Source: Escherichia coli (GTDB lineage Bacteria; Pseudomonadota; Gammaproteobacteria; Enterobacterales; Enterobacteriaceae). Taken from it: 64,000 nt of DNA. Shown here one piece after another: positions 3,383 to 60,961 of this stretch; within the stretch, counting starts at the first letter, position 1, and each line of letters starts with the position of its first letter. The notes below the pieces were generated by a model that saw nothing but the letters and a program-made list of their open reading frames with translations, had not been told where the DNA came from and did not search any database. The stretch lies in the NCBI RefSeq assembly GCF_048403405.1, contig NZ_CP183129.1. One strand, 5' to 3'. Both the position numbers and the translations under genes were made by a program.

Positions 3383-3604
3383 TATCTTTCCCCTGAAAAA
3401 TTCAAAATCATTAATATAGAAACAGTTAATCATCACGTTACCGGGACTGCGCTGCCCCTGCAATTCTTCATTTTATCAAAATTGAGCATGTTTTGTTAAC
3501 TTGCTGATATTTAATATTTTATTATCTTTAAATGTAAATAGTTTGTTAATTAGATCACATTTACATCACTTACTTTTGCCAAACTACGCAATCGGGAATA
3601 AAAG

Positions 3605-45529: not shown

Positions 45530-46303
45530 TCAGGCGTCGACTTTATCCAGCGGCCATGAATCAAACAGATAGCCGTCAAAATAAATATCGTCAACGTTCG
45601 AGAATTCCAGCAGACGTTGTTTAACGTTTTCCAGATGCTGCCACATTGCCAGCTTCGCCGCTCGGGCATCTTTTTTGATTAACGCGGCGAGGATCTGTTT
45701 GTGATCGCCCAACCACTCTTTGCGATACAGGCTGTCATCCAGATGGCTGTGCAACTGGATCCACATCGGATTGTTTTCCCGCCACTGCCAGGACTGACGG
45801 AATAGCTCCACCAGCATGCTGTTATGCGTCGCTTCGGCAATGGCGAGATGGAACTGCATGTCACCACTTTCGCTGCTGCCCGGCGCGCTGGAAGCAAGCT
45901 CACGCTCTTCCAGTTGCAATGCCTGACGCATTTTGACGATATCTTCGCGGGTAGCCTGCAGGGCGGCAAATTCCGCGATGTTACTTTCCAGTAACTGACG
46001 CGCCTGTAACAGCTCAAAAGGACCGGCATCATTGCAGACGTTGGCATCCGGACTGTCTGTGTTGTGGCTCCCTGAGCTATCAAGAACATAAATACCGGCA
46101 CCCCGGCGCACTTCCACCAGCCCTTTGATCTCCAGCATGATCAGCGCTTCACGTACCACCGTCCGCGTGACATCAAGCATTTCTGCAATTTCACGCTCCG
46201 GCGGCAGCCGTTCGCCAGGATTGTACGGCGTCTTTATGATCAGATCGCGGATCATCGCCCCGACTTCCTGGTAAGGTCTTTGCGCAGAGGTGACAGATTT
46301 CAT
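45530..46303 (-). CDS. uxuR: GntR/FadR-family repressor of hexuronate utilisation
   Basis: 257 aa; GntR HTH (EREIAEMLDVTRTVVREALIMLEIKGLVEVRRGAGIYV) and FCD domain. Confidence 0.9.
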   Translation of the reverse strand: MKSVTSAQRPYQEVGAMIRDLIIKTPYNPGERLPPEREIAEMLDVTRTVVREALIMLEIKGLVEVRRGAGIYVLDSSGSHNTDSPDANVCNDAGPFELLQARQLLESNIAEFAALQATREDIVKMRQALQLEERELASSAPGSSESGDMQFHLAIAEATHNSMLVELFRQSWQWRENNPMWIQLHSHLDDSLYRKEWLGDHKQILAALIKKDARAAKLAMWQHLENVKQRLLEFSNVDDIYFDGYLFDSWPLDKVDA

Positions 46304-46339: not shown

Positions 46340-46374
46340 GCCGGATGCGGCGTGAATGCCTTATCCGGCCTACA
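46340..46374. repeat. REP-like palindromic element
   Basis: gccggatgcggcgtgaatgccttatccggcctac in the uxuB-uxuR spacer. Confidence 0.5.
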
Positions 46375-46516
46375 ACGGGCAATTTTACGGCACCCGTTAA
46401 TCTCAAACTATACCATTAGCACTGGAAGTTGGCACGTACAGGTGGGCAAAAAAACGAAAACTGGTCAACCAAATATCAGTTTGATTGACCAGTAAGTCTG
46501 TAGGGTAATCAGTTAG

Positions 46517-47977
46517 TTACAGCGCAGCCACACACTCGCGCGCACCGCGTTCGCACAACTGCTGATATGCCGCCGTCACCGCGCCAACAAAGTCGGCATT
46601 CTGCGGCAGGTCATCGGCAAAAATACCGCTCAGGCCCAGCAGTGCTTTCACGCGGTCTGCGCCCTGATACTGCGCGTTAATCTTATGGAACTCGGCCAGC
46701 ATCGGGTCAACCACGTCAATGGCATTACCCTGTTCATCCACGCCCTGGGTGTAGCGCATCCAGCCAGCCACGCCCAGTGCCAGGTGACGCCAGCTGCCGC
46801 CGTTTTGCAGATGCAGACGCACCGGATCCAGCAGACGCTGCGGTAACTTCTGGCTGCCGTCCATCGCAATCTGCCAGGTACGGTGACGCAGAGACGGGTT
46901 ACTGAAACGCTCGATCAGCAGAGTCGCATAGGCGTTCAGGTCTGTACCTTCCGGCATCGACAGCGTTGGCGCTTGTTCCTGCATCATCAGGGCAAAGGCC
47001 GCTTTGCGATAATCCGGATTAGTCATGGTGTCGGCAATAGTTTCATAGCCGCCGAGGTAACCGAGGTACGCCAGGAAAGAGTGGCTGCCGTTAAGCATGC
47101 GCAGTTTCATCATTTCGAACGGCACAACGTCTGCAACGAACTGTGCGCCCACTTTATCCCAGTCCGGACGACCATTAACGAAGTTATCTTCAATCACCCA
47201 CTGACGGAACGGTTCGCAGGCAATGGCGCACGGGTCGTAAACACCCAGCTGGTCAGCAATTTCCTGTAAGGTTTCTGGCGTCGCCGCCGGAACGATGCGG
47301 TCAACCATGGTGCACGGGAAGGTGACGTTCTCTTCAATCCATGCCGCCAGCTGTGGATCACGCGCCTGAGCCAGCCCCAGTACCGCGACCTTCGCCACAT
47401 GACCGTTTTCACGCACGTTATCGCAGGACATCACCGTAAATGCTTTCAGCCCTTTTTCACGACGCAGACGCAAGGCTTCGACGATGTAACCAATCGCGGA
47501 CTTCGGCGCAGTCGGGTTTTCCAGATCGTGCTTGATCAGCGGGTTATTGAGATCCAGCTGACCGCTTGCCGCATCGGCGCAATAACCTTTCTCTGTGACC
47601 GTCAGGGAGACAATCGCCGTCTGCGGACGCGCCATCGCGTTGAGAATACCTTCACAACCGTCGATTTCCGGATGCAGGGCTTCTTTCATCGAACCGATAA
47701 TTTTCAACTCGGTGCTTTCTGCGCCTTTTTCCGCCACGGTGTACAGCAGTTGCTGTTTTTTCAGGTTTTCGATCAGCACGCGGTCGTTACCTGGCATCAG
47801 GTTAACTTCGCAGATACCCCAGTCGCTGTCGGTGCTTTCCAGCAGATGATGGGTATACAGCGCCTGGTGCGCGCGGTGAAACGCCCCGCAACCGAGATGC
47901 ACAATGCGTGATTCCAGACGAGAATGATCCCATGACGGGCGGGCAACCGGCAGATTGCTGTCAACAATAGTAGTCAT
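46517..47977 (-). CDS. uxuB: D-mannonate oxidoreductase (fructuronate reductase)
   Basis: 486 aa mannitol-dehydrogenase-family protein. Confidence 0.95.
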   Translation of the reverse strand: MTTIVDSNLPVARPSWDHSRLESRIVHLGCGAFHRAHQALYTHHLLESTDSDWGICEVNLMPGNDRVLIENLKKQQLLYTVAEKGAESTELKIIGSMKEALHPEIDGCEGILNAMARPQTAIVSLTVTEKGYCADAASGQLDLNNPLIKHDLENPTAPKSAIGYIVEALRLRREKGLKAFTVMSCDNVRENGHVAKVAVLGLAQARDPQLAAWIEENVTFPCTMVDRIVPAATPETLQEIADQLGVYDPCAIACEPFRQWVIEDNFVNGRPDWDKVGAQFVADVVPFEMMKLRMLNGSHSFLAYLGYLGGYETIADTMTNPDYRKAAFALMMQEQAPTLSMPEGTDLNAYATLLIERFSNPSLRHRTWQIAMDGSQKLPQRLLDPVRLHLQNGGSWRHLALGVAGWMRYTQGVDEQGNAIDVVDPMLAEFHKINAQYQGADRVKALLGLSGIFADDLPQNADFVGAVTAAYQQLCERGARECVAAL

Positions 47978-48057: not shown

Positions 48058-49242
48058 TTAACGGCTAAAGAAAGCGCGCTGGATCGCCAGTTCGACACCG
48101 CGAACTTCGGCCAGGCCTTTCAGACGACCAATTGCGGAGTAACCTGGGTTGGTTTTCTTCTTCAGGTCGTCCAGCATCTGATGACCGTGGTCCGGACGCA
48201 TCGGGATCAGGTCTTCTTTGCCTTCCGCTTTACGACGGTGTTCTTCTTCAACAATCGCTTTCACCACTTCGTACATATCAACGTCACCGTTCAGGTGCGC
48301 CGCTTCGTGGAAGGTTTTCGGGTTATCTTCACGCATGGTGGAGCGCAGGTGGGTGAAGTAAATACGCGGACCGAACTGCTTGATCATATCAACCAGATCG
48401 TTGTCAGCACGCACGCCGTAGGAACCTGTGCACATGGTAAAACCGTTCGCCATGCTGTTTACGGTATCAACCATCCACTGCATATCTTCAATGGTGGAAA
48501 CAATGCGCGGCAGGCCGAGGATCGGGCGCGGCGGATCGTCCGGGTGAACAGCCATACGCACGCCGACTTCTTCGGCAACCGGAATAATCGCTTTCAGGAA
48601 GACAGCGAAGTTTTCGCGCAGTTTGGCTTTGTCGATATCTTTGTACAGCTCCAGGTGCTTACGGAACTGGTCGAGGGTATACCCTTCTTCCGCGCCCGGC
48701 AGACCGGCAATGATGTTACGGGTCAGACGCGCTTTGTCTTCGTCGCTCATAGTCGCGAAGCGTTCAGCTGCCTGAGCAATTTCTTCTTCGGTGTAATCCG
48801 CTTCCGCGCCTGGACGTTTCAGGATATGCATTTCGAATGCAGCGAATTCGATCTGGTCGAAGCGCAGAGCTTTGGAGCCGTCTGGCAGCACGTATTCGAG
48901 GTCAGTACGGGTCCAGTCGAGCACCGGCATGAAGTTGTAGCACACGGTGCGAATGCCGCACTGCGCCAGGTTGCGCAGAGTCTGCTGATAGTTAGCGATC
49001 CACTGCTCGTAGTTGCCAGTGTGGGTTTTGATATCTTCGTGAATTGGCACGCTTTCTACGACAGACCACACCAGGCCTGCATCTTCAACGATCGCCTTGC
49101 GTTTGAGGATCTCTTCTACGGACCATACTTCGCCGTTCGGGATATGGTGCAGCGCGGTAACCACGCCAGTTGCGCCCGCCTGACGGACATCAGCTAAAGA
49201 AACCGGATCGTTTGGGCCGTACCAGCGCCAGGTCTGTTCCAT
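48058..49242 (-). CDS. uxuA: Mannonate dehydratase
   Basis: 394 aa from the internal Met ([16 protein letters not shown]...); the ORF-track start at 49278 is 12 codons upstream. Confidence 0.9.
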
Positions 49243-49404
49243 GATTTTTCCTCTTTCACATAGTGGGTTCCACAGCAAAGAGACGTGGAGCCCCGGAGTT
49301 GTTTAGGTATCCGGATGAACAACCAGACCGCAGCCGTGGCGTTGCATCGGATGAGATGGCGTATAAGTTCTACCTTTTGGTAAGACATGTCAACCCGAAT
49401 TCTA

Positions 49405-49420
49405 AAATTGGTTAACCACA
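49405..49420. promoter_or_regulatory. GntR-type palindromic operator (candidate UxuR/ExuR site) near the uxuA promoter
   Basis: AAATTGGTTAACCACA containing the palindrome TGGTTAACCA. Confidence 0.5.
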
Positions 49421-49512
49421 TCACAAGAATTTCACTCTCCTGGTTGTTGCTGCAAATTGCAGCAAAGGGTAATCGATGGTTATTGATCAGAGGATGTGAC
49501 ATTCATCGCAAC

Positions 49513-49527
49513 AATGGTTGACCAATT
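49513..49527. promoter_or_regulatory. Second GntR-type palindromic operator near the gntP promoter
   Basis: AATGGTTGACCAATT (imperfect palindrome TTGGTCAACCATT), about 55 bp upstream of the gntP start. Confidence 0.45.
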
Positions 49528-49581
49528 TACATAACATGTCGCCCAAAATAACAACGGTTCAACCAGGTAAGGTAAAACGTT

Positions 49582-50925
49582 ATGCATGTGCTTAACATTC
49601 TCTGGGTGGTATTCGGCATTGGTCTGATGCTGGTACTGAATTTGAAGTTCAAAATCAATTCAATGGTGGCTTTGTTGGTGGCGGCGCTGTCCGTCGGGAT
49701 GCTGGCGGGCATGGATTTGATGTCGCTGCTGCACACCATGAAAGCGGGCTTCGGCAACACGCTGGGGGAACTGGCTATCATCGTGGTGTTCGGTGCGGTC
49801 ATCGGTAAATTGATGGTCGACTCCGGCGCGGCGCACCAGATAGCGCATACGCTGCTGGCGCGTCTCGGTCTGCGCTATGTACAGCTGTCGGTGATTATCA
49901 TCGGCCTGATTTTCGGTCTGGCGATGTTTTATGAAGTGGCCTTTATCATGTTAGCGCCGCTGGTTATTGTTATTGCCGCCGAAGCTAAAATTCCGTTCCT
50001 GAAACTGGCGATCCCGGCAGTAGCAGCTGCCACTACCGCACATTCACTGTTCCCACCGCAGCCGGGTCCGGTGGCGCTGGTGAATGCTTATGGCGCGGAT
50101 ATGGGGATGGTTTATATCTATGGCGTACTGGTGACGATCCCAAGTGTCATCTGCGCAGGTCTGATCCTGCCGAAGTTCCTCGGCAATCTTGAGCGCCCAA
50201 CGCCATCATTCCTGAAAGCAGATCAACCGGTAGATATGAATAATCTGCCCTCTTTCGGCGTTTCGATTCTGGTGCCGCTGATCCCGGCGATCATTATGAT
50301 CTCTACCACCATCGCCAATATCTGGCTGGTAAAAGATACCCCTGCCTGGGAAGTGGTTAACTTTATCGGTTCCTCGCCGATTGCAATGTTTATTGCGATG
50401 GTGGTTGCATTCGTACTCTTCGGCACCGCGCGCGGGCACGATATGCAGTGGGTGATGAACGCTTTTGAAAGCGCGGTGAAGAGTATTGCAATGGTGATTC
50501 TGATCATCGGTGCGGGTGGCGTGCTGAAGCAGACCATCATCGACACCGGCATTGGCGACACCATCGGCATGTTGATGTCCCACGGCAATATCTCGCCCTA
50601 CATCATGGCATGGCTGATCACCGTACTGATTCGTCTGGCGACGGGTCAGGGTGTCGTTTCGGCGATGACCGCTGCCGGGATTATCAGTGCAGCAATCCTT
50701 GATCCAGCAACTGGTCAGCTGGTTGGCGTGAATCCGGCGCTGCTGGTACTGGCGACGGCTGCGGGTTCCAACACCCTCACCCACATTAACGATGCATCTT
50801 TCTGGTTGTTCAAAGGTTACTTTGACCTGTCAGTAAAAGATACGTTGAAAACCTGGGGTCTGCTGGAGCTGGTCAACTCCGTGGTTGGGCTGATTATTGT
50901 GCTGATTATTAGCATGGTAGCGTAA
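49582..50925 (+). CDS. gntP: GntP-family gluconate/fructuronate permease
   Basis: 447 aa polytopic membrane protein, divergent from uxuA. Confidence 0.9.
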
Positions 50926-59925: not shown

Positions 59926-60938
59926 CGTTTTCCCTTATAATTACAGACGCGCACTAGCTGTGCTGGGTTAGCAATAATCCAACATTTTAATCCTGATTAT
60001 GTTTATAAAAGCGAACGTTTGCTTAATAACTAACGTAAGTGGACCAGTTCTTCTGAGCGAATTTAAATGGAGTAGCGATAGTTACTTATAATAACTTTGC
60101 CATACAAACGCCATGCTCTTGCATGCTATGTACCTTTATATATTTATCAATCTGATACGAATCTAATAATAACCCTCATCATTAATGCAACTAATCTTAT
60201 CTATATATCATGTGATATGTTCTGTAACAAGTAAAATCAACATAAAAAATTCAGCAAAATTTAATATTCGTTCAACTAGCCGTCTCACATATGACATTAT
60301 TAGTCAACTCCACTTGCCACAAAATGGCTATTTCATGGAACGCAGTAATTTCTTAGTGGCTATTATCAAGCTAATTCTTAGGTCCCTAGCGATTATTCCT
60401 GGCTGGTTCGTCAGTTTAGGTCATGAGATTGTTACATTCCTTTTTATCCTGGAGATATGGGGGAACGCAGGCGACGCTTTTTCATCTACATCCGTTGGTA
60501 AATATGGCTTTGGTCACTACGACTTAAACCCTCCTCAATCACAGCTACTCGCCGGGCGATACGGCAAACAAACTAATTGAAACATCATCCTGAAAACACC
60601 AGCATCAACAAGCCTCTCCAGATCGACATCAGGAGTGACCAGTTACAAGCCACAAACCAAGAAACATATTTCATGATGAGAATTATGCTCAGCCTGATGG
60701 CGGGTAAACACTTATTTTCACCAAGCTCACTGAGTTAGCTTGCAAAGCTTTCTTTGTTTAGATTCTAAATAAATTATTTATAAAACATATAGTTAAAAGA
60801 AAATCTTTAGTTTTTGAAGACCACCGCAAGTGTTCGTCTGGCTTCACATGGCATCTGCCTCTTAGAAAAAGATCGACATATTTTGTGACACGAATTGCAA
60901 ATCTGGTTTTGTTGTATAGATTGCGTGATTTTTGATCT

Positions 60939-60961
60939 GGTATAACAGGTATAAAGGTGCG
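60939..60961. promoter_or_regulatory. NanR-type operator (GGTATA repeats)
   Basis: GGTATAacaGGTATAaaGGTGCG in the nanC-fimB intergenic region, about 415 bp upstream of nanC. Confidence 0.5.

Follow-up and report, generated by a model that had tools for sequence, protein, structure and literature searches.

The UxuR operators of the E. coli hexuronate regulon were reportedly described by Rodionov (2000), Bates Utz (2004), and Suvorova (2011), and Blanco (1986) and Tutukina (2016) are also said to be primary descriptions of the gntP-uxuAB element. These operators are covered in a survey of the FadR subfamily (PMC4494728) and in a genomic SELEX paper (PMC5934670); according to the survey, UxuR sites have 2 nt, and ExuR sites 3 nt, between GT and AC (PMC4494728). 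Genomic SELEX with UxuR gave a single peak in the gntP/uxuA spacer, which was weakened by glucuronate (PMC5934670). Deletion of uxuR led to a strong rise in UxuA, and a uxuAB promoter reporter was directly de-repressed, whereas deletion of exuR left the detected proteome without significant change (PMC9369180). UxuR has been described as a homodimer, and a synthetic AAATTGGTATACCAATTT operator placed in a promoter conferred UxuR repression that was relieved by glucuronate (PMC8092373). The same UxuR literature cites classical genetics for effects of ExuR on uxu and proposes UxuR-ExuR heterodimers. The operators of ExuR itself, a paralogous repressor acting in the same pathway, are found at exuT, uxaCA, uxaB, and exuR, and at uxuA where UxuR is absent; they too are A/T-rich palindromes with related half-sites, but they are odd palindromes with GT-N3-AC, e.g., AAAGTTGTATGACAAGTTA and AAAGTGGTATAACAAATAT, and so differ from the N2 sites considered here. 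A more distant counterpart is LldR, a repressor of the same subfamily and the third-best NCBIfam match of UxuR, which has its own pair of palindromic operators (O1/O2 of E. coli lldPRD) roughly 100 bp apart. DNA looping has been proposed for LldR, and its repression is reported to depend on the distance and angular orientation of the operators (PMC8689689).

Here we report on two palindromes in the divergent spacer between uxuA and gntP, the uxuA-proximal O1 and the gntP-proximal O2, in a 64-kb stretch of E. coli DNA (the window, i.e., the whole stretch analyzed). This pair of UxuR operators is already known from the gntP-uxuAB divergon of E. coli and is not new. The organism, the spacer, and the regulator are the same, the sites are identical to those of K-12, and both are even palindromes with GT-N2-AC and AAATTGGT..ACCAATTT arms; nothing essential differs, and we are dealing with a known element in another E. 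coli strain. As both UxuR SELEX and a CRP ChIP-seq motif have been published for this spacer, the element was already known. It is a textbook-level regulatory element of E. coli hexuronate catabolism, rediscovered, and its main value is that of a positive control, in that true operators were recoverable from a raw reading of the sequence. The only forward-looking aspect is the conserved ~104-bp spacing together with the unusual -55 position of O1.

Two palindromes in the uxuA/gntP control region

A first-pass annotation of the window had placed the palindromes between divergent uxuA and gntP genes; these gene identities were borne out by NCBIfam and RefSeq, and uxuB and uxuR are downstream (Table 1). 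The uxuR product is a FadR-subfamily GntR-family repressor (the title of NF007588 being 'Uxu operon transcriptional regulator'), and past gntP lies the fim operon. As the NCBIfam alignment of UxuA begins at residue 13, we take the start codon of uxuA to be the ATG at 49242, the TTG at 49278 used by the mechanical ORF being too early. The divergent spacer (49243-49581, 339 bp) has 98% identity to that of K-12 MG1655, in which every element of the spacer discussed here is unchanged (K-12 coordinate = 4,600,878 minus window position); a polymorphism at 49404 (A/G) is in the flank, beyond the 18-bp O1 motif. The 451 bases around both palindromes matched several E. coli chromosomes at 100% and were found in 5404 of 5426 complete E. 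coli genomes.

Table 1. Genes and regulatory features of the uxuR-gntP region, in window coordinates
Feature	Position	Strand	Basis or details
uxuR	45530..46303	-	NCBIfam equivalog NF007588, 582.8 bits vs. cut-off 442; RefSeq
Third UxuR-type site and one-mismatch copy	46458..46493	-	Core 46462-46471, 21.7 bits; copy 46482-46491
uxuB	46517-47977	-	NCBIfam / RefSeq annotation
uxuA (mannonate dehydratase; first gene of uxuAB)	48058..49242	-	TIGR00695, 793 bits; annotation
Predicted uxuA core promoter	49365..49393	-	-35 TTGACA 49393..49388, 17-bp spacer, -10 GAACTT 49370..49365
O1, uxuA-proximal UxuR-type operator, AAATTGGTTAACCACATC	49405..49422		Matrix score, conservation
TGTGA, directly 5' of O1	49421..49425	-	Precedes O1 in most related loci
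Central spacer between conserved blocks	49426..49494		Unconserved sequence, constrained length
CRP site, TGTGACATTCATCGCA	49495..49510	+	Sequence; abuts O2
O2, gntP-proximal UxuR-type operator, ACAATGGTTGACCAATTT (minus strand AAATTGGTCAACCATTGT)	49511..49528		Matrix score, conservation
Predicted gntP -10, TAACAT	49532..49537	+	Conserved in Citrobacter
gntP	49582..50925	+	NF007459, 908.7 bits; annotation; K-12 label fructuronate transporter

Both palindromes were found in the spacer. The core of O1, TGGTTAACCA (49409-49418, centre 49413.5), is a perfect 10-bp palindrome, as had been claimed, and reads TGGT-TA-ACCA; that of O2, TGGTTGACCA (49515-49524, centre 49519.5, 106 bp from O1), reads TGGT-TG-ACCA, and in each of the two operators one arm is fully consensus and the other is degenerate. 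The second palindrome had been given an end at 49527, which was wrong, the true end being 49525; the sequence quoted for it, TTGGTCAACCATT, is the minus strand of 49513-49525, where the plus strand reads AATGGTTGACCAA.

Perfect 10-bp palindromes are not rare as such, as the window holds about as many as expected (51 vs. ~62), and to this extent O1 and O2 could be chance occurrences without a regulatory role. However, the TGGTNNACCA motif has three matches in 64 kb vs. 0.8 expected, and all three are inside the two uxu spacers, the third being upstream of uxuR; as these spacers together make up only 0.86% of the window, such a placement by chance is very unlikely. In addition, we scanned the window with an 18-bp weight matrix derived from uxuA loci outside Escherichia (19 distinct sites; consensus AAATTGGTTAACCAATTT), and the top three matches were O1 (22.5 bits), the uxuR site (21.7 bits), and O2 (19.8 bits), with the next match at 14.3 bits; in Markov-simulated 64-kb sequences, 0.04 matches of ≥19 bits are expected, vs. 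the three observed. As one matrix of non-Escherichia origin puts O1, the uxuR site, and O2 on top, the palindromes are variants of one GntR-family (FadR-subfamily) operator, in agreement with the first-pass annotation.

The sites are also conserved well beyond E. coli. Among 80 loci encoding UxuA relatives (one genome per species), the 400 bp upstream of uxuA had 15 times the density of perfect TGGTNNACCA cores seen in the remainder of the loci (0.91 vs. 0.059 per kb). O1 is kept in 14 related loci, with sites at orthologous positions in E. albertii, Citrobacter (4 strains), Enterobacter sp. R1, Cedecea, Ag1, Shimwellia, Erwinia (2 species), Providencia, and BIGb0407, and paired sites at uxuA also occur in Citrobacter, Cedecea, Erwinia, and one Enterobacter. 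Between Escherichia and Citrobacter, the conserved blocks at O1 and O2 had ungapped identities of 0.79-0.97 vs. 0.21-0.35 for the spacer; for the block comprising O2 and the CRP site the identity was 83-97%, with the adjoining spacer at random level. Within E. coli, the 40-mer at O2 was unchanged in 5132 of 5404 genomes, a figure to be read in light of the little power that within-species 40-mer polymorphism has. Given the placement of the motif, the rank of the three sites in the matrix scan, the conservation of O1 and O2 across genera at a fixed distance to the promoter, and the published binding of UxuR in the uxuA/gntP spacer (PMC5934670), we consider the probability that the palindromes arose by chance and are without a regulatory role to be negligible. 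The existence of O1 and O2, the type and non-randomness of their motif, and their conservation across genera are demonstrated.

Assignment of O1 and O2 to UxuR or ExuR

It is very probable that the two palindromes are operators of the hexuronate repressor UxuR, which is encoded 3 kb away in the same cluster. O1 and O2 both have the UxuR-type GT-N2-AC spacing and fit the UxuR criterion NyGT-Nx-ACNy with x = 2 (criterion from PMC4494728), their A/T-rich arms match AAATTGGT..ACCAATTT, and they are located in the regulatory spacer of hexuronate genes with the cognate uxuR nearby; every defining feature of a UxuR operator that can be tested on sequence is present at O1 and O2. Binding by UxuR and UxuR-dependent repression in this spacer are shown in the literature.

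The first-pass annotation had gone further and proposed dual control by UxuR and ExuR. The UxuR part of this proposal stands, with SELEX, deletion, and synthetic operator data behind it; the ExuR part is unsupported, in view of the N2 spacing and of low ExuR scores. The latter were obtained with an ExuR matrix built from the published sites in the supplement of PMC4494728, on which the training sites themselves scored 7.9 bits at the lowest, 11.9 at the 10th percentile, and 17.9 at the median. By this matrix O2 scored 1.5 bits, and O1 reached 8.0 bits in a shifted register, i.e., only the level of the weakest ExuR training site, and neither the GT-N3-AC spacing nor a score comparable to those of ExuR operators was found at O1 or O2. 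The published E. coli ExuR site list (uxaB, uxaCA, exuT, and exuR) has no uxuA or gntP entry, the ExuR_ECO entries being b1521, b3092-3091, b3093, and b3094 only. Where uxuA is under ExuR alone, the site is clearly different: in genera without a nearby uxuR (Enterobacter, Kluyvera, Serratia, and a second Citrobacter copy) we found the ExuR-type TTGGTATAACAA near the uxuA start codon. While the half-sites of ExuR and UxuR are alike (TTGGT / TTGT) and the shifted match at O1 might be taken as further support, the spacing of both sites, their ExuR scores, the published site list, the different operator of other genera, and the contrasting effects of exuR and uxuR deletion on the proteome (PMC9369180) make it unlikely that O1 and O2 are shared operators, bound directly by ExuR too to a physiologically relevant degree. 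Judged by sequence, ExuR homodimer operators in the uxuA/gntP spacer find no support; ExuR may nevertheless have an influence indirectly, through cross-binding or in heterodimers with UxuR, for which there are published proposals.

A further ExuR-type candidate, TGGTAAGACAT (49378-49388, in the uxuA promoter spacer), was rejected, as its 7.2 bits were reached by 15% of random 420-bp windows, and an earlier ExuR matrix derived from class-B uxuA sites was set aside as too redundant for use. Elsewhere in the window, the top match of a crude ExuR-like matrix was GGTATAacaGGTATAaaGGTgcg (60938-60959, in the nanC-fimB spacer), a run of GGTATA repeats, which we take to be of the kind described as a NanR operator.

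Predicted promoters, CRP sites, and the third UxuR-type site

The first-pass annotation had put each palindrome at one of the two divergent promoters; this arrangement was borne out once the promoters had been placed from conserved hexamers (Table 1). On the gntP side, the predicted -10 would put the transcription start near 49544-49545, in which case the centre of the CRP site would be at ~-41.5, a class II position, and that of O2 at ~-24.5, over the -35 region. The CRP site, TGTGA-CATTCA-TCGCA, has 9 of the 10 half-site positions of TGTGA-N6-TCACA; its half-sites are conserved in Citrobacter, with variation in the central 6 nt. In ETEC H10407, the motif reported for a CRP ChIP-seq peak between gntP and uxuA is exactly the reverse complement of this site, TGCGATGAATGTCACA (PMC4287617). 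This layout is like that of class II CRP-dependent promoters with a repressor site over the -35 region, in that CRP would be centred ~41.5 bp upstream of the predicted start, the gntP promoter has no recognizable -35, and the repressor site is between the CRP site and the -10; it differs in that the gntP start is a predicted one. We envisage that without inducer (fructuronate or glucuronate) one UxuR dimer would occupy each of the AAATTGGT-YR-ACCAATTT-like sites. O2 would then fill the position between the class II CRP site and the gntP -10, and as it would cover the -35 region at its predicted position, bound UxuR would keep RNA polymerase off the gntP promoter. Inducer would free UxuR, and CRP-cAMP would then permit expression of both units.

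Also on the gntP side, the predicted leader contains at ~+16 the sequence CGGTTCAACCA (49555-49565), which has UxuR-like half-sites with one extra central base; of the four Citrobacter loci, two have the perfect odd palindrome TGGTTGAACCA as its counterpart, and two have TGGTTGAACTA. Presumably it resembles PdhR/LldR-type N3 boxes; as an ExuR-type site it was unsupported, scoring -5.4 bits on the published-site ExuR matrix. In the divergent E. coli strain SCPM-O-B-8794 (locus L004, 3540-3760), gntP, fim, and nanC are absent beside uxuA, and nanM-like and sialate-esterase-like genes abut the uxuA control region. O2 and the CRP site are intact in this strain, their block having 97% identity vs. 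74-78% in the flanks, and an intact O2 without gntP would fit either a role of O2 at uxuA as well or a deletion that happened recently.

Of 15 sequences examined upstream of uxuA, 13 had a TTGACA-like -35 and, after it, a weak -10 beginning with GA. The exact TTGACA-N17-GAAYTT occurs in Escherichia, Citrobacter, Enterobacter sp. R1, Cedecea, and Ag1, with variants in Shimwellia (-10 GATGTT), 'Klebsiella' BIGb0407 (18-bp spacer and -10 GAGAAT), and Erwinia psidii (TTGATA / GAGATT). This promoter would put the uxuA start near 49357-49360, with a leader of ~115 nt. Wherever the -35 was found, the centre of O1 is 20.5 bp upstream of its first base (21.5 bp in Erwinia psidii), which would place it at ~-55 of the uxuA start in every genus. 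A consensus-scan match, TTGTGA-16-TAGAAT, has O1 in its spacer, and if it were the promoter O1 would fall in the promoter spacer; we prefer TTGACA-17-GAAYTT, as it is conserved across genera and the rival -10 is not conserved in Citrobacter. With TTGACA-17-GAAYTT as the promoter, O1 at ~-55 would be just upstream of the -35, and for this reason could not simply occlude the uxuA core promoter. It would most likely block upstream activation (through the alpha-CTD or a weak overlapping CRP site), and alternatively or additionally it may cooperate with a second operator one hundred-odd bp off. The TGTGA beside O1 may contribute one half-site to a second, weak CRP site, TGTGATGTGGTTAACC (49425..49410), overlapping O1, a candidate whose second half-site is poor; several CRP sites have been mentioned for the uxuA/gntP spacer (PMC3105977).

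The uxuA leader (49243-49357) is ~78 nt longer in E. coli and E. albertii than in Citrobacter, and it contains a 2-mismatch box, TGGTTGTTCA (49316-49325). Its predicted fold was no better than that of shuffles (z = -1.67), and an Rfam search of 49000-49800 with E-values up to 1 identified no match.

The third UxuR-type site, upstream of uxuR, has the same motif as O1 and O2 and would allow autoregulation of uxuR. In the uxuB-uxuR spacer this site and its one-mismatch copy, 20 bp apart, are the two arms of a 14-pair hairpin (46460-46493, minus strand), which is located directly after the uxuB stop codon and is followed by UUUUCGUUUUUUU. With a dG of -19.7 kcal/mol (z = -4.1), this predicted hairpin is an intrinsic-terminator-like structure made of operator boxes. 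In Citrobacter, the stem stays paired owing to a compensatory change, from ACTGG..CCAGT to ACGGG..CCCGT, by which the UxuR consensus is weakened; as this change comes at the expense of the consensus, selection on the hairpin would be at least as strong as that on the boxes. Further towards uxuR, a promoter-like site (-35 at 46435..46430, extended -10 at 46412..46407) is followed, ahead of the uxuR start codon, by the REP-like GCCGGATGCGGCGTGAATGCCTTATCCGGCCTAC (46340-46375), which, should this be a true promoter, would belong to the uxuR leader.

Spacing of the operator pair

The centre-to-centre distance between O1 and its partner varies little among five enterobacterial lineages, even though the partner is not always on the same side. 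It is the upstream gntP operator in Escherichia (106 bp) and Citrobacter (104-105 bp), and a downstream site in the uxuA leader in Enterobacter sp. R1 (105 bp, near the ribosome-binding site), Cedecea and Ag1 (102 bp), and Erwinia (103-104 bp); in the lineages with a downstream partner, gntP is absent upstream of uxuA. The central spacer between the conserved blocks is 69 bp long here and 67-68 bp in Citrobacter, a difference of ≤2 bp, while its identity among Citrobacter strains is as low as 0.22. Site-pair distances over all loci cluster at ~2, 3, 8, 10, 11, and 12 turns of the helix, with a Rayleigh R of 0.59-0.68 at a period of 10.2-10.4 bp that was reached by 0.05% of naive random sets, although most of this signal comes from the 102-106 cluster, and the lineages cannot be counted as independent.

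A constrained spacing over an unconserved spacer suggests cooperative binding or looping, and we put forward tentatively, as a possibility short of probable, that UxuR represses via a fixed-geometry pair of operators separated by ~ten helical turns, which it would bind cooperatively or join in a DNA loop. We lean slightly towards the reading that the operators are independent, each UxuR dimer repressing the adjacent promoter only, and that the 106-bp spacing is without functional meaning. Each operator adjoins its own promoter, the FadR-subfamily divergon survey recognizes a class of independent, operon-specific double sites (PMC4494728), UxuR is by description a homodimer (PMC8092373), and in Providencia and 'Klebsiella' BIGb0407 the spacings are 142-144 bp instead. 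Several observations speak against independent operators: O1 is at ~-55, outside the core promoter, in every genus; in five enterobacterial lineages its partner is always at a distance of 102-106 bp, be it on the upstream or the downstream side; and the spacer has a randomized sequence yet is held to a length of 67-69 bp. The ~10.2-10.4-bp periodicity, with the same proviso on non-independent lineages, points in the same direction. Our literature search for looping or tetramerisation of UxuR found no report of either, and the fixed O1 to -35 geometry together with the ~104-bp partner spacing may be new.

If the looping reading is true, evolution would have swapped the partner of O1 between the uxuA leader and the upstream gntP operator, and the gntP operator would be needed for full repression of uxuAB, as would O1 for full repression of gntP. 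UxuR-UxuR contacts spanning the spacer would in this case couple repression of the transporter gene to that of the enzyme operon. UxuR would then be a second FadR-subfamily looping case beside LldR, with the difference that the UxuR operators serve two divergent promoters and those of LldR bracket one, and the arrangement would be useful to builders of UxuR-based glucuronate biosensors.

Midway between O1 and O2, at 49447-49465, is an E. coli-specific perfect 19-bp palindrome, TTGCTGCAAATTGCAGCAA, for which we recognized no match to a known site. It is in the unconserved spacer, carries a single mismatch in E. albertii, is degraded in a divergent Escherichia strain, and is absent in Citrobacter; we rejected it as a conserved site, which it probably is not.

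Outside the enterobacteria, five Vibrionaceae loci (L050, L053, L061, L068, and L074; ~1700-1900 or 3390-3540) have strong UxuR-type sites that recur in threes, spaced by 112-115 bp and 34 bp and located ~2 kb upstream of uxuA (~0.5 kb in Enterovibrio, L074). These triplets are a different, equally regular multi-operator arrangement.
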